Of a stretch of 64,000 bases of DNA, positions 8,772-56,226 are shown piece by piece; position 1 is the stretch's first letter; each line of letters starts with the position of its first letter. Source of the DNA: Verrucomicrobiota bacterium. Its GTDB lineage: Bacteria; Verrucomicrobiota; Kiritimatiellia; UBA8416; JBHORK01. A model generated the notes under the pieces. It was not told where the DNA came from and made no database searches. It saw only the letters and a program-made list of their open reading frames with translations. The stretch is taken from the NCBI GenBank assembly GCA_042565725.1, contig JBHORK010000004.1, forward strand, positions 2,750-66,749. The letters are read 5' to 3'. The position numbers and the translations under genes are program-made.

Positions 8772-10838
8772 ATGAAAAGACATTGGCATAGCTGGTTATT
8801 ATTTACGGTATTTGTGGTTGCGGTTCTCGCGGCTATGGGCTGGTTAAGCAGTAAAATGGTAACTTTGCAGGAGGCGAACATCAAGGCCCAGCAGGATGCG
8901 GCCTTTGAAGAGTCCGTTCGGCTTGCACTCTGGCGGATGGACGCGGAGATTTCTCCCATGATACTGGAGGAAAGTTCCCGGCCGTATTACGATTACTGGG
9001 CATATAATTATAACGGTCAGATTATTGAGAGAGAAGAGCTTGGGAATAATGACTTTAATATCAGGCCAAACGCTTCCCCTTTGCTTGCGCAGACTAATGC
9101 TGCAGGTGTTAATATCTATTTTCAGACTGAGCTGAATGACAAAGAGAAGAACGCATCCCAAATAGAGTCGCCCCAGGTTCTTGACACGATAACCAATCTG
9201 GCTGTTGGTAAAGATATTGACTTAAGAGATAACTGGAGACAGCTTGATACTCTTAACAGGACTATAAACGCGGAAGATTTAAATAATGCTTTGCAGGTTG
9301 CGAATGCAACCGAAGAAATAAATGCTGATAATGAAACTGAAGACCTTAGTCGGCAGGTTACAAGCGTTGGGGTTGTATCAGGTGAAAAGAGGCAGCAACT
9401 TGCCAACAATGATTATACCCTGGATGCTCAAAAACAGGGGAATATGCCTGTTCAGGGAAGGGGAATGCAACAGGCGGCGCAGGTTGATCAGTCGAGTTAT
9501 CTTCAGCGCAGATCTAAGAATGAAGAGTCGAAAAAGAAAGTGCAACAGACAAAATCACGTTTTTACGATGAAATATCGTTGGCAAATGCAGCTCGCCAGG
9601 AGCCAGTTTCAAGAAGTGATAAATCCAAGTCAAATGCCTCGAAAGAAATCAGAGGGAAAGCAGGTAAACTAAGGAAATCAAGTTGGGGAAAAGGCGAATC
9701 AAAGGAGGCGGAGCAGATCATTGCGCAACAGCCGGTTGCGCGGCAGATTAAATATTCTGATGACCAGTCGGTAAAGGTCAAAGAGGATGTTATGCATCCT
9801 GTATGGGTAAATGATCTTCTTATCCTCGCGCGGACAGTCAGGATTAACGGTAAATCAACTATCCAGGGTGTCTGGCTTAACTGGGAAAATATAAAGAGCC
9901 AATTACTTGATGAAATAAAGGATCTGTTTCCTGAAGCTGAACTTGTAGCCGCTGATCCTTTAAAAGAAACAGATAAGTCCAGGTTGATGGCCGCTATTCC
10001 TGTAAAGCTTATTCCCGGTAATGCGATTAATCTGCCGGTTATACCTGTGTCATCTTACAAGCTTCCTCTTGCGATAGCCTGGGTGTTTGTGCTTATAGGT
10101 GTATTTGCTGTAGCGATATTGCTTCTCGGTACATCTGTGCTGAGTGAGCGGAGGGGCGCATTTGTTTCGGCAGTGACACATGAGCTGAGAACACCTCTGA
10201 CTACTTTTCGAATGTACACCGAGATGCTGGCGGAAGGTATGGTCAAAAACGAAGAAAAGAGAGATGAATATCTTCAGACTTTACATAAGGAAAGTAATCG
10301 GCTTGGACATTTAGTGGAGAACGTTCTTGCTTATTCAAGACTTGAGAATGGTTCTGTAAGCAGTTCGCTCGAGAAAATAAGAATTAATGATATAATAGAG
10401 CGGGTTCAGGAAACTTTATCGCGCCGTGCCGAAGAAGCCGGCATGCGGTTGGTGATAGATATATCTGACGAAAATCGTTATGCGGAAAGTCATACCAGTC
10501 TTATGACCGTTGAGCAGATTCTGTTTAATCTTGTCGATAATTCCTGCAAGTATGCGTCATCGGCAGATGATAAAAGGATTCATTTTGCTGTGACTGTAGA
10601 AGGAGAATCAGTGATTATAAGAATCTGTGATCATGGTAAAGGCTTGCAGAAGACGGATCGTCAGATAGCGTTCAAGCCATTTCGTAAGTCTGCGGAGATG
10701 GCTGCCGAAAGCGCGCCCGGGGTGGGGCTGGGGCTTGCGTTATGCAAGCGGCTTGCTGCGCAGATTGATGCAAGGATTTATTATGAGGAGCATAAGAGCT
10801 ATGGAGCCTGCTTCACTCTCCGCCTGCCTTTAAGCTGA
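8772..10838 (+). CDS. Sensor histidine kinase (HisKA + HATPase_c) with a large periplasmic region
   Basis: H-box VTHELRTPLT, N-box QILFNLVDNSCKY, DHGKG and GVGLGL G-boxes, and two TM segments. Likely start ATG 8772 (MKRHWHSW). Confidence 0.95.
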   Translation: MKRHWHSWLLFTVFVVAVLAAMGWLSSKMVTLQEANIKAQQDAAFEESVRLALWRMDAEISPMILEESSRPYYDYWAYNYNGQIIEREELGNNDFNIRPNASPLLAQTNAAGVNIYFQTELNDKEKNASQIESPQVLDTITNLAVGKDIDLRDNWRQLDTLNRTINAEDLNNALQVANATEEINADNETEDLSRQVTSVGVVSGEKRQQLANNDYTLDAQKQGNMPVQGRGMQQAAQVDQSSYLQRRSKNEESKKKVQQTKSRFYDEISLANAARQEPVSRSDKSKSNASKEIRGKAGKLRKSSWGKGESKEAEQIIAQQPVARQIKYSDDQSVKVKEDVMHPVWVNDLLILARTVRINGKSTIQGVWLNWENIKSQLLDEIKDLFPEAELVAADPLKETDKSRLMAAIPVKLIPGNAINLPVIPVSSYKLPLAIAWVFVLIGVFAVAILLLGTSVLSERRGAFVSAVTHELRTPLTTFRMYTEMLAEGMVKNEEKRDEYLQTLHKESNRLGHLVENVLAYSRLENGSVSSSLEKIRINDIIERVQETLSRRAEEAGMRLVIDISDENRYAESHTSLMTVEQILFNLVDNSCKYASSADDKRIHFAVTVEGESVIIRICDHGKGLQKTDRQIAFKPFRKSAEMAAESAPGVGLGLALCKRLAAQIDARIYYEEHKSYGACFTLRLPLS

Positions 10839-10877
10839 TTAATTAGTTGTTACTGAGAAATCTTATTTTTCAAGAAT

Positions 10878-11048
10878 GCAGAAAGAATTTCGTTCGAAAA
10901 TCGAACCCGCATATTACCGCTTCTGCTGCGTTCCTGCTCCCCTAAAATACCAAAGTATGTGTCGGGTCGCAGCGCCTTGCATAAGCGGCAATCTGCTGAT
11001 CCGATTTTCGAATCCTTCGACAAGCTCAGGAAACGAAATTCTTTCTGC
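10878..11048. mobile_element. MITE-like palindromic element with a nested REP-like insert in the right arm
   Basis: Exact 17-bp terminal IR GCAGAAAGAATTTCGTT (10878-10894) / 11032-11048, continued by CGAAAATCG / CGATTTTCG. The right arm is interrupted by TCCTTCGACAAGCTCAGGA (11013-11031). Related left ends occur at ~15768-15832 and ~50557-50640. Confidence 0.7.
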
Positions 11049-11055
11049 GGTTTAC

Positions 11056-11084
11056 ACCCCGCTCCCGCGGGGAGGGGTTTGTTT
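11056..11084 (+). terminator. Possible intrinsic terminator between the convergent kinase and nagB genes
   Basis: GC-rich hairpin ACCCCGCTCCCGCGGGGAGGGGT followed by TTGTTT. Confidence 0.35.
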
Positions 11085-11331
11085 GTCATTCCCCCGGTCC
11101 TTTTTGTTGTTGGATTTTTGAGCACTTGATTCTGTGTTAGGCATACCTATACCGGATATATTAACTGTTTGAAGTTGAGCGGCTTTCTTTCTCTTTTATA
11201 CTTTTTTCTGATATGTGATATATGGATATGCGGATAATGCGTCCCGCGGTAGCATCTCCGTCTCCCGACGGATGGGCTTATTAAGAATTCCCCCGGTGCT
11301 TCATTATTACAACACTTTTCGATGTGAAACC

Positions 11332-14601: not shown

Positions 14602-15753
14602 ATGAGTTCGGAGCAGGCAAAAAAAAGAGATAGAAATCGTTATACAATTCTTTCAGCGATTCAGTCGCAGGGGCCATTGAAGCGTACGGAGTTGGCCACT
14701 AAATACAGCATAAGGAAATCCAGTGTGACAAGTCTGGTGGATGAACTGATAACGCGTGAGATATTGTGCAATAAGATTGCAGAAAGACCACGAAGCCCTA
14801 TGACATTTACGAGCGGTAAATGGTTCGCGGTCGCGGTTAGTGTCTTTGTCGAGGAAATTCATTTCGGGCGTATAGATTTGACAGGGAAGATTTATGACAA
14901 ACTGACGTTACCTCTAAAAGGGGAGTCACAGAAAGAACTCCTGGAGATTATTTCGGATGGTATAGGTCGTATGTTGAAAATTAATCCATCCAGGAGTCTA
15001 GGTATTGGAATTGCTGTTCCCGGAATTGTTAATTCAAATGATGGCATATGTAATTATGCGATTAACATGCCGCAGTTACGTGACGCGAAGATTGGAGCAT
15101 ATATAAAAAGCAAATTTAATCAGAGCGTTATGGTTGAGAATGATGTCAGGGCAAGTCTTTGGGCCGGTATATGGTTCGAGCGGTTTCTCTCTAATTACAG
15201 GAATGTTATTTATCTGGATATTACTTCAGGCATCAGTTCCGCTTTATTGGTAAATGGTCAGCGTCATGTGGGCGCAACTTTTTCAGCAGGAGAGCTTGGT
15301 CACATGAAGGCGGGTGACGAGAACAGATCATGCCGATGCGGGAAGGTGGATTGCCTGGAGACATATTGCAGTATAGAAGCAATATGCAGGGATATTCACG
15401 CGATTGCTCCCGAACTTGGGAATTTGAAGTCTGCTGTTGATATTGTGGATGCCGCCAAAGATAACGTTGTTGTAATGAACGTGTTGGATCGGGCAATGGA
15501 GCGTTTGTGTCGGTTGCTTTCGGTTCTGGTAGCTTATGTTGATCCTGATGTGATTCTGCTTGGAAATCAAGATCCCCGGTTTTATGAGCTGGTTCTTCCA
15601 ATGCTGAAAAAGCATCTGCTTACGCAGCTGCAGGGATGCAGTTCGGGTGAGGTTGATATGCATATCGTGCCTTCCGCAATGGATAGCGCGTTGCGTGGTG
15701 TTGCCGGGTTGGTTATAGACAACGCGTTCAAGTTTAATTTCCATGCTGAATAA
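14602..15753 (+). CDS. ROK-family transcriptional repressor (NagC/XylR-like)
   Basis: N-terminal HTH (LKRTELATKYSIRKSSVTSLVDELI) and ROK domain with VENDVRA, GELGH and CRCGKVDCLE zinc motif; divergent from the catabolic operon. Confidence 0.92.
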   Translation: MSSEQAKKRDRNRYTILSAIQSQGPLKRTELATKYSIRKSSVTSLVDELITREILCNKIAERPRSPMTFTSGKWFAVAVSVFVEEIHFGRIDLTGKIYDKLTLPLKGESQKELLEIISDGIGRMLKINPSRSLGIGIAVPGIVNSNDGICNYAINMPQLRDAKIGAYIKSKFNQSVMVENDVRASLWAGIWFERFLSNYRNVIYLDITSGISSALLVNGQRHVGATFSAGELGHMKAGDENRSCRCGKVDCLETYCSIEAICRDIHAIAPELGNLKSAVDIVDAAKDNVVVMNVLDRAMERLCRLLSVLVAYVDPDVILLGNQDPRFYELVLPMLKKHLLTQLQGCSSGEVDMHIVPSAMDSALRGVAGLVIDNAFKFNFHAE

Positions 15754-16053
15754 AAATTCTGTATACAGTTTGTTAATATAAGAATGCAGGAGAATTTCGT
15801 TTCTCTTTTCGCTCAGAAGCTACCGCGGACAAGTTGTTTCTGTTTTTTCAACCCTTTGGGTAACAAAATGCGCAAAGCGGCTTACAGCCCCCCCCCCCCC
15901 GGCGGAGGCATGCCCAAGTTTCGGAGTATCTGTTATCTGCCTTGTTTCTACCGCCATCTTAAATGTTGTTTTGCTCCGAATAACCAGTGGGACTACTTAA
16001 TCAAAGGTTATGTTATCATCCGGAATTGGAGAGTTCCCTACTTTCGCTACCCC

Positions 16054-48499: not shown

Positions 48500-50515
48500 A
48501 TGATAAATCGTATGAAGCTTTCGATAATCATTCCGGCGCATAATGAAGAGAAGAGAATAGGGCGTATGTTTGATGCCTATCTTCCCTTTTTTACGTCACG
48601 CTATGGCGATAATGTTGAATTCATTACGGTTATCAATGGCACTTCCGATCGAACGGAAGACGTTGTCAGGAAATACAGGGAGAAATATCCAAATCTGCGT
48701 TATATTGTTGAGCCGAAGAGTGTCGGCAAAGGCGGGGCGCTTATGTTGGGGTTCCCGGATGCGAGGGGGGATTTAATCGGGTTCTCAGATGCCGATGGAT
48801 CCACTACCCCGGAAGCTTTTCAGGACCTGGTGGATAATATTGGTGATTCTGATGCTATTATTGCCTCCCGGTGGTGTCGAGGCGCCAAGGTAAGTCCCAG
48901 ACAGCCTCTTTTGCGCAGAATAGCATCGCGGGTTTTTAATCTTCTGACGCGGATATTCTTTGGTCTTCCTCTTACCGACACTCAATGCGGTGCCAAGCTT
49001 ATAAAAAGGGAAGCTGTTATACGGGTACTGTCTAAACTTGGTCTTACGCATTGGGCTTTCGATGTGGACCTTCTCTTTCAGTTGAAAAGGGCTGGATATA
49101 AAATTATAGAAATTCCAACAACATGGCATGATGTTGAGGGGTCAAAGATAGAAATTACCCGGGTTTCTCTTGAGATGTTTGCCGCGTTGACGCGTTTGCG
49201 TTTGCTGTATTCTCCTTTTGCATGGGTGGTGACTTTGTATAATAAATATCTTGGGCCGTTTATTCATCCTCCCGGATTGGAACAGGACCACTTATTCAGA
49301 CACAGCCTTCTCTTGATGGTGGGAATGCAGATAGCAAGTTTTCTAAATGTGTTATTTCAAATAGCTATGATGAGAATGTTGTCTGGACCGGAATATGGCG
49401 ACATGGCTGTTATGCTTCGCGTTTTCTTGATTGTCAGCTTTTCAGTTGGGGCTTTCAGGTGGACTATGGCTCATTTTACCGCGCGCCTTATTAAAGAGGG
49501 TAATTCTGAGAAAGTTAAATCAATGATAGCGGATATAGTGCGGAGTTTTTTAATTTTAGGTATTTTAATCTTTGCGTTACTTGTGGTTGGTTCATCTGGT
49601 TTAGCGGGATTCTTTAATGTGGAAAGCAGTAAATTGATAATAGTAATGGGCGTATCTGTTATTGCGGGGCTTTATTCTCCGATATTGGCGGGGGTGTTAA
49701 ATGGTTGCCAGGCGTTTACATGGTTGTCTGGGACTGGAATCGCGTGGGGATTGATACGTTTGGTATTTGCAATTACTGCCGTGGCAATGGGTTTTTCGGC
49801 AGTTGGGGCAATGTCAGGTCATGCAACTGCCATGGCGGCGAGTATTGTTATTTATATTATTGCTTTAAGGAAATTATTAGGGCCGGGTATTTCAAGGACG
49901 GAGAGAGTTGTTGGTGTTTATCCGTATTTTTTCAAGTATGTAATAGCTTTGACCGCGTTCGCGGTTCTGATGAATGCGGATGTTTTAATTGTTAAACATT
50001 ATTTTGATTCGGTTACAGCGGGTTATTTTGCGAAGGCATCTGTTATTGCAAGCATTGTGGTTTTTCTGCCGCAACCTATTGCGATGGCAATGTTTCCCAA
50101 GGTTGTATCATCAGGTGATGCATCTTACGCGAGTTGTAGGATTCTGCTTAAAGCTTTGGCGCTGGCGGCGTTTATTATTGGTAGCGTAGCGTTGGCATGC
50201 ACGATCTTTCCGCAATTTTTCTTATGGTTGTTTAAAGGTGATCGATCGTTTGATTCAGTGCCGTTACTGCGCGGTATGGTATGGGCGTTGTGTCCTGTGA
50301 GTATGGTTTTTGTGATTATGAGCTACGAATTAGCACAGCGCAGATTCATGATTACATTACCTTTAATTATATGTGCCGTAGGATATATTGCGGGAGTTAC
50401 TGTATGGCACGAAACACCATTGCAGATTGTTGCCGTTTTGGGTATATCGGGTGTGTTTGCTCTGGCGTTTTCGATTATGTGTTTGCCGTGGCGTGTTATG
50501 CGTAAAGGTAAGTAG
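48500..50515 (+). CDS. Fusion of a polyprenol-phosphate glycosyltransferase (GT2) with a Wzx/MATE-like flippase domain
   Basis: N-terminal LSIIIPAHNEE, GKGGA, FSDADGS and DTQCGAK (Dol-P-Glc/Man synthase-like), then ~12 TM helices of flippase type. Start 48500 or 48512. Confidence 0.85.
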   Translation: MINRMKLSIIIPAHNEEKRIGRMFDAYLPFFTSRYGDNVEFITVINGTSDRTEDVVRKYREKYPNLRYIVEPKSVGKGGALMLGFPDARGDLIGFSDADGSTTPEAFQDLVDNIGDSDAIIASRWCRGAKVSPRQPLLRRIASRVFNLLTRIFFGLPLTDTQCGAKLIKREAVIRVLSKLGLTHWAFDVDLLFQLKRAGYKIIEIPTTWHDVEGSKIEITRVSLEMFAALTRLRLLYSPFAWVVTLYNKYLGPFIHPPGLEQDHLFRHSLLLMVGMQIASFLNVLFQIAMMRMLSGPEYGDMAVMLRVFLIVSFSVGAFRWTMAHFTARLIKEGNSEKVKSMIADIVRSFLILGILIFALLVVGSSGLAGFFNVESSKLIIVMGVSVIAGLYSPILAGVLNGCQAFTWLSGTGIAWGLIRLVFAITAVAMGFSAVGAMSGHATAMAASIVIYIIALRKLLGPGISRTERVVGVYPYFFKYVIALTAFAVLMNADVLIVKHYFDSVTAGYFAKASVIASIVVFLPQPIAMAMFPKVVSSGDASYASCRILLKALALAAFIIGSVALACTIFPQFFLWLFKGDRSFDSVPLLRGMVWALCPVSMVFVIMSYELAQRRFMITLPLIICAVGYIAGVTVWHETPLQIVAVLGISGVFALAFSIMCLPWRVMRKGK

Positions 50516-50692
50516 TCGAGCTATTAGTTAGTCGGTCCTGAAGAACCCTGTTTAAAGTTTGTTAACTTAAGAATGAAGTAAGAATTTCGTTCCCCCCTTC
50601 GCTCAGAAGCTACGGTGGGACAAGCGAAAATCAGACCCGCATCTCTTGTCGCTTCGGGATATGCTCTTTCTTGTCTGGAGCTCGAAGACTCG

Positions 50693-52315
50693 CTAGCCCG
50701 AATGTTTCATGAGTAAGATTTATTAACCGCCGATGAACGCCGATAGACGCAGATAAGATTTTCAGACAGGATCAATCCTCTGGATCCATAGGATCCAACG
50801 GATCCGAGGACAGGATTAACAGGATTTTTTATATCTGAGGACAGAGCTCCGCCATATCCTCCGTTCTTTTTCTGGTGCCGGGGACAGCACACTTTGTATA
50901 TCACTCGATTGCGAGGCGACGGGCAACATCAAGGAAGAGCGTTTGATAGGGATATGCACTTGATGCATGGAACCTGATTCGGCGAGTGTTACGAATAATC
51001 ACGCAACCTATCTTCAGGAGCTTCAGTCGGATGGTTCCACATTGAGCGTTGGCCATCGCTGTGCCTTTTAACGCTGTTCGTCGTATAGTTTCCACAAGAA
51101 CATATGCTAACCCGGAAAGCATCATGCGCAACTGATTCGGCCACCAGTTATGACAACTTGTGCGGTCACTGAACATATCGAGTTGCTGTTCTTTGATGCG
51201 GTTCTCCATGTCGCCACGCATTACATAATCTCGGTCGTAAAGCTTTTGAGGATCACCCGGCAGGTTGGTCGCAACGTAACGAGGGTTGCTGCCCATAGAA
51301 GAGTGTTCTGCTTTGACTATGATACGACGCTCTTTGTCCCAGGGCATGGCAGCGTATTGAACTGATGTAAACAGCCGCTGCTTTTCTCCTGTTTCACCAA
51401 ATAGCTTTTCTGCTTTTTCGATGAGCGGTGCAGCCACAGCATTGATGCGGGAGTTTTTCGCTAAGCCAATAATATAGCCCACTCTATGATTATCGCACCA
51501 CTGCATCATACGCCACTTGCAGTAACCACTGTCTCCTCGAATGATGATCTTCACACCCGGCCATTCTTTGCGAAGTCGTTCAACCAATAGACGCAGAATA
51601 GCCCATGCATGTCGCGCAGCGCCACGCCTGCTCGGACGAAGATATGAAACGAGTAACTGAGAACCGCAGAAGACATATAAAGGCAGAAAGCAGTAACTTC
51701 GGTAATACCCATGAAAGAACCGTCCAACCTGTTGGCCATGGATACGATCATCAGTAGCATCAAAATCCAGAACTAATCGTTTTGGCACCTCCTTAAATGA
51801 GGAAATAAACTTTTCTACAAGCAGATTAGATATTGCCCAGGCCGTTTCTCTGTCAGCGGCGTTTTCCAGTCGGCATAGCGTAGGAGCGCTGGCCAGGGCT
51901 TCATCACGCTCAACTGCGGTCTGTAATGCCAGATCATATCGCAAGGTCTTATGATCGTTCAGATCCTCGTAGCCAAGAGCCAGTCCGTAAATCCGCTGTT
52001 TGAAGAGCTTTTGAAGAGAGTGATCGCAGCTCTTTGTGCGGCGATTGTCCTTAAGCGCTTTGCTCAAGTCGCGTGTCAGGCCAATACAACGATCTGCTTG
52101 TCTTAGAAGCAGGCTGCCTGCGTCACTGGTGATATCGCCACCGTTAAAATCAAATTCTATTTTACGTGACTTATATGCTGGAAACAGCTCTTGTTGCGTG
52201 CTACACTTTGTCATGGTAACTCCTTTCTGTTGTGCTTTTGTAACTAACTGCACTATAACAGGTTACAAAGGAATTACCATCTTTTTCTAGAGGATTCGTG
52301 AAATATTGGGGCTAG
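50693..52315 (-). mobile_element. IS1380-family insertion sequence
   Basis: Imperfect terminal IRs CTAGCCCGAATGTTTCATGA (50693-50712) and the reverse complement of 52296-52315, CTAGCCCCAATATTTCACGA (17/20), enclosing the transposase. Confidence 0.9.
50901..52214 (-). CDS. IS1380-family DDE transposase
   Basis: FNGGDITSDAG, LGYEDLNDH, LDFDATDD, RGDSGY and RGDMENRIKEQQ motifs; appears intact. Start ATG 52214 follows AGAAAGGAG. Confidence 0.95.
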   Translation of the reverse strand: MTKCSTQQELFPAYKSRKIEFDFNGGDITSDAGSLLLRQADRCIGLTRDLSKALKDNRRTKSCDHSLQKLFKQRIYGLALGYEDLNDHKTLRYDLALQTAVERDEALASAPTLCRLENAADRETAWAISNLLVEKFISSFKEVPKRLVLDFDATDDRIHGQQVGRFFHGYYRSYCFLPLYVFCGSQLLVSYLRPSRRGAARHAWAILRLLVERLRKEWPGVKIIIRGDSGYCKWRMMQWCDNHRVGYIIGLAKNSRINAVAAPLIEKAEKLFGETGEKQRLFTSVQYAAMPWDKERRIIVKAEHSSMGSNPRYVATNLPGDPQKLYDRDYVMRGDMENRIKEQQLDMFSDRTSCHNWWPNQLRMMLSGLAYVLVETIRRTALKGTAMANAQCGTIRLKLLKIGCVIIRNTRRIRFHASSAYPYQTLFLDVARRLAIE

Positions 52316-56141: not shown

Positions 56142-56226
56142 CAGAGCACCGAATTTGCTGCGTTCCGCGATGTTTCGCATAGAGTCTATAGCGAAACACC
56201 GCGCGTCTTGCACTTTCGGCACTCTG
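56142..56226. repeat. Structured palindromic element upstream of leuS, related to the core of 10878-11048
   Basis: Shares TGCTGCGTTCC and GCGYCTTGCA boxes with 10924-10981; inner stem TGTTTCGC/GCGAAACA. Confidence 0.65.

Follow-up and report, generated by a model that had tools for sequence, protein, structure and literature searches.

The window (the whole stretch of 64,000 nucleotides analysed here) comes from a metagenome-derived genome of 2.96 Mb in 203 contigs with 73% completeness, designated G000, and contains, just 3' of a plus-strand open reading frame (ORF) that ends at 10838, a 171-base stretch (10878-11048) representing a single full copy of a dispersed, non-coding foldback repeat family. 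The 5' arm of this copy reads GCAGAAAGAATTTCGTT|CGAAAATCG (10878-10903) with an empty junction, and its 3' arm reads CGATTTTCG-AA-TCCTTCGACAAGCTCAGGA (11013-11031)-AACGAAATTCTTTCTGC and ends at 11048; as read from these sequences, the only interruption to the complementarity of the two arms is a 19-nt hairpin (11013-11031) located at the junction. On the plus strand, the outer stem P1 is formed by GCAGAAAGAATTTCGTT (10878-10894), which ends at the GTT|CGAAA junction, and AACGAAATTCTTTCTGC (11032-11048), whereas the second helix, P2, is formed by CGAAAATCG (10895-10903), which abuts P1 with zero unpaired bases between them, and CGATTTTCG (11002-11010). The inner rod, or core (10904-11001, model positions ~28-124), combines the conserved boxes TCTGCTGCGTT (10922-10932), GCGCCTTGCAT (10972-10982), and GGCAATCT (10987-10994) with a variable and perfectly paired apical hairpin. 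A side hairpin of the TCG..CTC loop type, P3 (TCCT-TCGACAAGCTC-AGGA, 11013-11031), branches from the 3' arm at the junction and is the part that an earlier note on this DNA had called an insert. The rod is followed by a tail (11049-11097) composed of the GGTTTACA spacer, a GC hairpin (CCCCGC-TCCC-GCGGGG, 11057-11072), and further bases. When folded as single-stranded DNA, the 10878-11048 copy reaches -40.8 kcal/mol (z = -7.2 relative to shuffled sequences). An 81-aa ORF (10876-11121) covers the copy, and a coding role was rejected because the copies vary in length by amounts not divisible by three, their start codon is not kept, and the variation is compensatory. The reading as an intrinsic terminator was also rejected, since most copies have no T-run after the rod or the tail hairpin (judged by eye).

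Two other copies in the window were examined together with their gene context. The left end of a composite copy (50575-50641, plus strand), located 3' of a plus-strand ORF ending at 50515, consists of the left arm (50575-50591), a 33-nt TTCGCTCAGAAGC hairpin module (50592-50624), and the 5' strand of P2 with the rod start (50625-50641), such that CCCCCCTTCGCTCAGAAGCTACGGTGGGACAAG stands between GTT and CGAAAATC; another hairpin repeat and then an insertion sequence come next. A partial or hybrid copy (15786-15907, plus strand), located 3' of a plus-strand ORF ending at 15753, is made of four pieces, namely a left arm GCAGGAGAATTTCGTT (15786-15801), a 32-nt TTCGCTCAGAAGC hairpin module (15802-15833), a mini hairpin with the right arm of another subfamily (CCCTTTGGG-TAACAAAATGCGCAAAGC, 15852-15878), and a tail (15879-15907); within 15786-15833, TCTCTTTTCGCTCAGAAGCTACCGCGGACAAG, which is related to the 50592-50624 module, stands after GTT. 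A core-only relative at 56142-56226 (plus strand) has the same conserved boxes but a different outer stem and apical hairpin. All sequences and positions previously given for the three copies were found as stated, and AGAATTTCGTT occurs four times in the window (0.10 expected; 0 of 100 shuffles reach four) and 25 times in the 2.96-Mb genome. The remark that all three copies lie just 3' of a plus-strand gene holds in the window but not genome-wide, as a co-oriented gene is found on the 5' side of only 10 of 22 copies. Directly after the composite copy, an ORF for a 450-aa DDE transposase (50901-52253, minus strand; IS4/IS1380-like by eye) has related copies or fragments on contigs C44 and C33 and seems to have interrupted a hairpin repeat at ~50696. 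This repeat (50652-50696) belongs to a second family, also observed at C11:18180-18250 and on C60, C116, C120, C169, C178, and C181, which forms a long hairpin whose stem is wholly different between copies yet complementary and whose apex CTTTGTCTGGAGC-TCGAAGACTC-GCTAGGCCTGCAG is conserved. A small module, TCCTCTGGATCCATAGGATCCAACGGATCCGAGGACAGG, is free-standing at 50776-50814 and also nested in the apical loop of the element copy at C142:2077-2330.

Using BLAST and profile searches, at least 22 full copies were detected in G000 along with numerous fragments. The MITE-like family proposed earlier is borne out as a dispersed, non-coding palindromic family. Every full copy in this genome possesses P1, P2, the inner rod with a variable, perfectly paired apical hairpin, P3, and the conserved tail, and the box consensus of the inner rod is TCTGC.GCGTT, GC.CCTTGCA, and GGCAA.CT. 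The rod measures ~170 nt, and the element ~300 nt if its conserved flanks are included; the conserved tail outside the palindrome comprises GGTTTACA, the GC hairpin, and then often TGCCCAAGTTCATA. In G000 the tail is always joined to the 3' arm of the rod, and G016 shows the same architecture. According to RNAalifold, one strand folds into a three-way junction at which P1 and P3 meet a long inner rod, comprising P2 and the core, that has two conserved internal loops and carries the variable apical hairpin. The arms differ between subfamilies, but the partner always matches (GCAGGAAGAATTTCG/CGAAATTCTTCCTGC, GCGGAACGCATTTCG/CGAAATGCGTYCCGC, and GCTTTGCGCATTTCG/CAAAATGCGCAAAGC). Compensatory changes were found by RNAalifold in 38 of 57 pairs within two genomes, and compensatory double changes in 56 of 57 pairs when 36 copies from ~25 genomes were compared, in which 95% of cells are paired, as opposed to 34-44% with the partner slid; these pair counts derive from model-fitted alignments and thus lean towards the structure. 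For the P1 helix, compensatory changes are seen in all 16 pairs across genomes.

A covariance model built from 21 copies gave full-length matches in 26 of 64 genomes from the order, representing 19 of 39 genera and having at most 42 copies each, as well as matches in many other families of the class Kiritimatiellae. Elsewhere in the phylum, weak core-only matches were obtained in three genomes, and the inner rod (core) was also found standing alone. The family is old and class-wide across Kiritimatiellae. A search of the whole window against Rfam 15 at gathering scores returned zero matches, and the element at permissive thresholds gave chance-level matches only (E above 3). A gapped DNA pattern had zero matches over 185,579 species genomes, this pattern being too strict and missing the form present in G021. 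Judging from Rfam and the literature searched, the family appears to be undescribed. Examination of the neighboring genes in single-copy genomes found no recurrent partner.

The mismatches within the fold bear on the molecule in which pairing matters. Among 1935 paired cells, 1811 hold Watson-Crick pairs; G·U accounts for 33, A·C for 41, and other mismatches for 50. If selection acted on an RNA, G·U should be much better tolerated than A·C. The finding that G·U is as rare as A·C therefore fits a situation in which pairing matters on DNA, or on both strands, and the lack of a G·U excess among mismatches points to pairing of the element at the DNA level.

The orientation of the element is also strongly polarized. 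The flank GC skew on the element top strand is positive for 19 of 22 copies in G000 (17 of 20 after removing the coding-strand effect) and likewise, in genomes from three other families, for 19 of 23 in G016, 11 of 11 in G005, and all six unpaired copies in G008. Taken together, 55 of 62 unpaired copies from these four genomes have their top strand on the G-rich strand, and when one copy per contig or region is counted, 45 of 48 are positive (sign test, p ~7e-11 by our own arithmetic). The orientation relative to neighboring genes is inconstant, being mostly antisense in tandem contexts in G000 and mostly sense in G016. The G-rich strand usually has the leading-strand sequence, a general rule whose backing in this class is limited to G016, where the G-rich strand is also the gene-rich strand. 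If this rule applies, the top strand should therefore lie on the lagging-strand template and be transiently single-stranded. Thus, with replication direction deduced from skew and gene bias, element orientation suggests a biology of single-stranded DNA at the replication fork. A lagging-strand-template bias of this kind has been described for IS200/IS605 elements (PMC5027513, PMC6006769), and some DDE insertion-sequence families also have a replication-linked orientation bias (PMC3971601).

These data also bear on the idea that the element is a structured non-coding RNA family, or a cis-acting RNA in 3' untranslated regions or intergenic transcripts, with P3 as a variable stem. The very strong covariation and the conserved unpaired loop sequences over the whole class would suit such an RNA, as would the optional stems, the long and short variants common to two families, and the location of many copies 18-100 nt downstream of a gene. 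However, G·U pairs (33) are not commoner than A·C (41), orientation tracks GC skew and not the neighboring genes, and copy numbers reach 42 per genome, with identical copies in bursts, forms that are truncated or hybrid, and sites of presence or absence among them; in addition, a conserved promoter or terminator was not seen by eye, and zero Rfam families matched. We therefore consider an RNA family quite improbable.

Considering that the 3' arm carries a hairpin at the point where the 5' arm is empty, the earlier note had interpreted the filled right arm as the product of an insertion. Among exact-match arms in G000, the left one is empty in 10 of 12 cases and the right one has a hairpin in 10 of 10 (Fisher's test, p ~1e-4, our own arithmetic), and the contrast between empty and filled follows the arm and not the copy. 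P3 is present in all 22 full copies of G000, with varying type and length, and G021, which belongs to another family of the same order, has a minimal P3 (TCCTTCGGA, TCC-TTC-GGA) at the same point; in some lineages P3 is absent, with just a bulge of 3-6 nt in its place. The presence of P3 in all full copies together with the minimal P3 in G021 indicates that the right-arm hairpin is an old built-in helix and therefore not an insertion in this copy. P3 is a constitutive, ancient helix, and the insertion claim for the right arm is not supported.

Nevertheless, P3 is the most length-variable site of the family, and in G016, 9 of 10 insertions of at least 6 nt fall within it. The P3 types in G000 are discrete, including TCCGCC-nnnn-GGCGGA, TCCY-TCGNAGACTC-RGGA, TCCCTTCGGG, and longer fillings. 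When P3 type was mapped on a backbone tree from which P3 had been left out, eight changes were counted, compared with a mean of 7.9 for shuffled labels, and at least four changes are forced by well-supported backbone branches. The claim that different small hairpin modules are found at one junction is upheld in that they occupy closely related backbones, and the P3 fillings in G000 are exchanged regardless of backbone relatedness. A true indel was identified in the left arm, where the 33-nt module of the composite window copy is lacking from the otherwise same composite at C11:18139. Because the two window copies with left-arm inserts share their left flanks, these inserts probably record one event. 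Extra hairpins were also detected on both sides of the TTGCAT loop (C122, C142, and C143, the same two hairpins recurring in the 203-nt variants that G021 has), within the apical loop (C142), and within the tail-hairpin loop (C155, C142, and C161), and all of these other insert sites are loops or junctions of the fold. The proposed fixed hotspot at GTT|CGAAA is thus the main site of variation in length and sequence, but it is a built-in helix and inserts are observed at three further places. The scattering of inserts along the element, which was named as evidence against a hotspot, is accordingly half realized, since inserts extend beyond one junction but are confined to loops and junctions.

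The sequences filling P3 were then traced in other contexts. The hairpin TCCGCCnnnnGGCGGA is present at ~34 loci in G000 (~0.5 expected), ~20 of which are in other contexts, and CCTCGNRGACTCRGG is present in 12 of 64 genomes, with 42 copies in G052 and 17 in G051, both of which are without the big element; as a control, the reversed pattern of CCTCGNRGACTCRGG had three matches in all 64 genomes. The mini-hairpin CCTCGGGGACTCGGG in G051 (17 copies) and G052 (42 copies) often occurs as inverted doublets 50-65 nt apart, resembling REPINs. The TTCGCTCAGAAGC hairpin has at least nine copies in a hairpin context and mostly caps other palindromes, and a third copy of its module (the 33-nt left-arm type) is located inside P3 of the C161 copy. 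The TCGAAGACTC loop, which caps another repeat family in G000, also forms part of P3 in G006 and of tail hairpins in G008. In two copies the filling is CCCGAT...ATCGGG, which is similar to the hairpins of pseudo-tRNA-Ala cassettes. A region of G000 (C170:10950-12100) contains pseudo-tRNA-Ala units before tRNA-Ala(GGC) with hairpins CCCGATGTCTGCGCATCGGG that are similar to the P3 fillings at C131 and C142. P3 modules begin with TCC or CCC, and a GTAG or CGTC head is absent, whereas short GC-rich hairpins in high copy number, both single and as inverted doublets, are what characterize REPs and REPINs, and high copy number is seen for TCCGCCnnnnGGCGGA and, often as doublets, for CCTCGNRGACTCRGG. 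P3 modules are therefore independent, dispersed, REP-like hairpin families, and what looked like a hotspot is a constitutive variable arm repeatedly refilled from them.

As a RAYT- or IS200-like enzyme flanked by the same hairpins had been suggested as the driver, we read the flanks of all four Y1-domain genes of G000. Two of them encode proteins of ~350 aa and have their own inverted ends, the third is a truncated fragment of that type, and the fourth encodes a 163-aa RAYT (C177:5610-6101), which is the sole compact, REP-flanked RAYT in this genome. The RAYT gene has its own, unrelated GTAG-type REPs (CGACGGCG...GTCGGCTACAG) on its flanks and not any P3 module, and the mini-hairpin was not found near the RAYT loci that were fetched. 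After this reading of the four genes the RAYT link was rejected. Y1-domain genes are present in 63 of the 64 genomes of the order, with or without the element, and being near-universal they do not track it, so that the correlation is uninformative. A RAYT mechanism for the hairpin hotspot is thus unsupported. The region C177:5500-6330 has the arrangement of a textbook REPtron, with the RAYT gene followed by five tandem GTAG-type REP units (GACCGCGGGGACAGGAACCGACGTCAGCGCCGTCGGCTACAG) and related units upstream. The ~350-aa Y1 proteins (C164:1227-2288 and C122:2808-3852) are 42% identical, each within inverted GGGGTCA..GTCTCGACATTCGACA ends; one of the genes adjoins a tRNA gene, and Y1 proteins of this size are common throughout the order.

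These results allow an assessment of the model of the earlier note, in which a RAYT/IS200-like HUH enzyme inserts REP-like hairpins at GTT|CGAAA, an empty arm being a free target and a filled arm an occupied one. Several observations agree with it: the P3 fillings belong to dispersed hairpin families, nearly identical backbones carry different P3 types, the left arm offers one filled/empty pair, the replication-polar orientation suits single-strand DNA enzymes, and a RAYT is present in G000. However, an empty 3' arm was seen in none of 10 exact-match arms and none of 22 full copies, the minimal hairpin in G021 marks the site as a built-in helix, the REPs of the RAYT (GTAG...CGACGGCG) are unrelated and the mini-hairpin is absent at the fetched RAYT loci, Y1 genes do not follow the element, further insertion sites exist, and recombination between copies would yield the same mosaic pattern. 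On balance, such site-specific insertion at the junction seems unlikely.

Evidence for mobility was obtained at another level. G021 contains dozens of rods that are identical save for the apical stem, which exists in two fully different self-complementary versions, and these rods sit in a more diverged carrier consisting of a left extension and a tail hairpin. Of these carriers, one contains no rod (...CCCTGC|AGCCCGC...) and another keeps the last 10 nt of the rod alone; by this single empty/filled comparison, insertion occurred after CCCTGC, and filled sites show no duplication. The filled, empty, and footprint carriers thus demonstrate that element-into-element insertion is real in the family, although in G021 it takes place one level above that originally proposed, with the rod entering a carrier. 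In three genomes the rods follow (T/A)GC, which is too little to define a target. In G000, an empty site for the rod was looked for and not found, the tail never occurs without the 3' arm of the rod, and no target duplication is visible at the rod ends. Neither G000 nor G021 yielded an autonomous copy, in which a gene would stand between the arms, and the lone arms in G021 are truncated copies beside ordinary genes. A different, classical MITE, 231 bp long, encloses the core in G020; its inverted ends measure 13 bp and its target duplications 5 bp. This MITE underwent a very recent burst in G020 (L092-L103), with 12 identical 231-bp copies having ends CCTATATACGGCA/TGCCGTTTCTAGG and AT-rich 5-bp target duplications; a core-less variant of 137 bp has six copies there, and diverged relatives are present in G000 (C173, C200, and C91).

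It might be argued that the whole element moves by ordinary cut-and-paste as a MITE, with arms that represent the terminal inverted repeats of a DDE transposon and inserts that are unrelated small indels tolerated where they leave the ends undisturbed. The long inverted arms, small size, and intergenic sites are in line with this possibility, as are the core within a genuine MITE of 12 identical copies in G020, whose inverted ends span 13 bp and whose target duplications span 5 bp, and the replication-linked orientation of some DDE families (PMC3971601). However, the arm sequences are not conserved but co-vary by subfamily (GCAGGAAGAATTTCG, GCGGAACGCATTTCG, and GCTTTGCGCATTTCG), with the partner matching each; target duplications are seen neither at the rod ends nor at the empty site of G021; conserved flanks lie asymmetrically outside the arms; and a transposase-bearing relative with these arms was not found in G000 or G021. 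We thus give little credence to a cut-and-paste origin of the rod.

The best explanation, which we hold with some confidence, is that these sequences form an ancient, class-wide foldback DNA family with a three-way junction, in which P3 is exchanged and the single-stranded hairpin on the lagging-strand template would be handled by a structure-specific enzyme. The element would live as a DNA hairpin formed while the lagging-strand template is single-stranded, and it may be copied, excised, or exchanged at the fork by such an enzyme, for which the HUH/Y1 type is the best precedent. Loops and junctions, chiefly P3, would be the spots where small hairpins land or survive without breaking the fold. 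Against this explanation, the conserved unpaired loop bases throughout the class would also fit a host function, DDE families with orientation bias are known (PMC3971601), and the core in G020 rides in a MITE with terminal inverted repeats and target site duplications. It is also conceivable, although we regard it as less probable, that the rod, the core, and the small hairpins make up a previously unrecognized, nested hierarchy of structure-defined elements (hairpin in hairpin in carrier) that spread as single-stranded folds on the lagging-strand template by means of a structure-specific enzyme other than a classical RAYT or IS200 transposase, or that a replication-polar core kept by the host was taken up by mobile vehicles, with P3 serving as a programmable landing pad.

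As a DNA-level, replication-polar element defined by its fold and carrying nested hairpins, the family is in kind to be placed beside ERIC, REPIN, and IS200/IS605-derived elements. It is similar to ERIC/IRU sequences of Enterobacterales and vibrios, which are imperfect palindromes of more than 100 bp with many intergenic copies and a distribution over an order or more. A further likeness is that longer and shorter ERIC variants reportedly arose from internal insertions and deletions at set places, as Wilson and Sharp are said to have described in 2006. However, there is no sequence relation between the two, and the Kiritimatiellae family has a three-way junction, a constitutive side hairpin, conserved asymmetric flanks, Watson-Crick-only covariation, and a strong replication orientation. 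We know of no report of replication orientation or Watson-Crick-only covariation for ERIC. ERICs have been classed with MITEs and are co-transcribed with neighboring genes (PMC3184786). The bcr1 repeat of the Bacillus cereus group is likewise a dispersed sequence of ~155 bp in which compensatory changes keep a cruciform-like fold (PMC3184786), but it has 5-bp direct repeats and was described at the RNA level, whereas the Kiritimatiellae family is far wider and its mismatches are DNA-like.

REPs and REPINs share with our data the small, GC-rich, multicopy hairpins that sometimes form inverted doublets, as does the mini-hairpin CCTCGGGGACTCGGG in G051 and G052, and they are believed to function in single-stranded form (PMC6006769, PMC3116915). 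REPs are recognized by a conserved GTAG or CGTC head beside the hairpin (PMC3733652); the modules described here are without such a head and do not surround the RAYT of G000, and the 170-nt rod is not two REPs. IS200/IS605 elements and their gene-less derivatives resemble the family in having structure-defined ends with no logic of inverted ends and target duplications, in precise presence or absence without duplication (as in G021), and in orientation, because their active strand lies on the lagging-strand template (PMC5027513), which corresponds to the placement of 55 of 62 unpaired copies here, with direction deduced from skew and gene bias. They differ in possessing two short subterminal hairpins instead of one long foldback; moreover, no associated TnpA or TnpB and no gene between the arms were found for our family. 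IS200/IS605-type elements insert without duplication 3' of a fixed tetra- or pentanucleotide, and the sequences preceding the rods are too few to establish a tetranucleotide target of this kind. IS1397 and ISKpn1, as cited in PMC3184786, set a precedent in that a repeat specifically targets the loop of another, palindromic repeat, but they are full insertion sequences with a transposase, whereas the incoming units here are hairpins of 15-45 nt. Integron attC sites were considered as well and rejected, as the RYYYAAC ... GTTRRRY core sites are missing by eye, the junction reads GTTCGAA, GGTGCGT, and the like with no conserved AAC/GTT pair, and copies occur singly among housekeeping genes and not in cassette arrays.

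Bacterial interspersed repeats are usually described genome by genome as sequence families, whereas the present family is defined by its fold, is class-wide and replication-polar, and contains nested, exchangeable hairpins. It therefore constitutes a natural data set on how single-stranded DNA structures are recognized, copied, and tolerated at the replication fork, and the orientation of its copies may serve as a marker of replication direction on metagenome contigs of a poorly studied group. The family also points to an enzyme activity, and the side hairpin, if it is a true landing site, would be a small and defined target for hairpin insertion.

Mirrored arrangements of the element were observed in two genomes. 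In G008, it occurs in convergent pairs 170-510 nt apart (L107 9568-10077 and 17358-17991, L110 9730-10239, and L113 9301-10153), in which the tail hairpins lying between the partners carry the CCCCTCGNGGACTCGGGG mini-hairpin and the tail unit of L113 is tandemly repeated. On the 2.8-kb contig C90 of G000, a copy has 422-aa ORFs on either side in mirror orientation, which may be an assembly fold-back around the palindrome.
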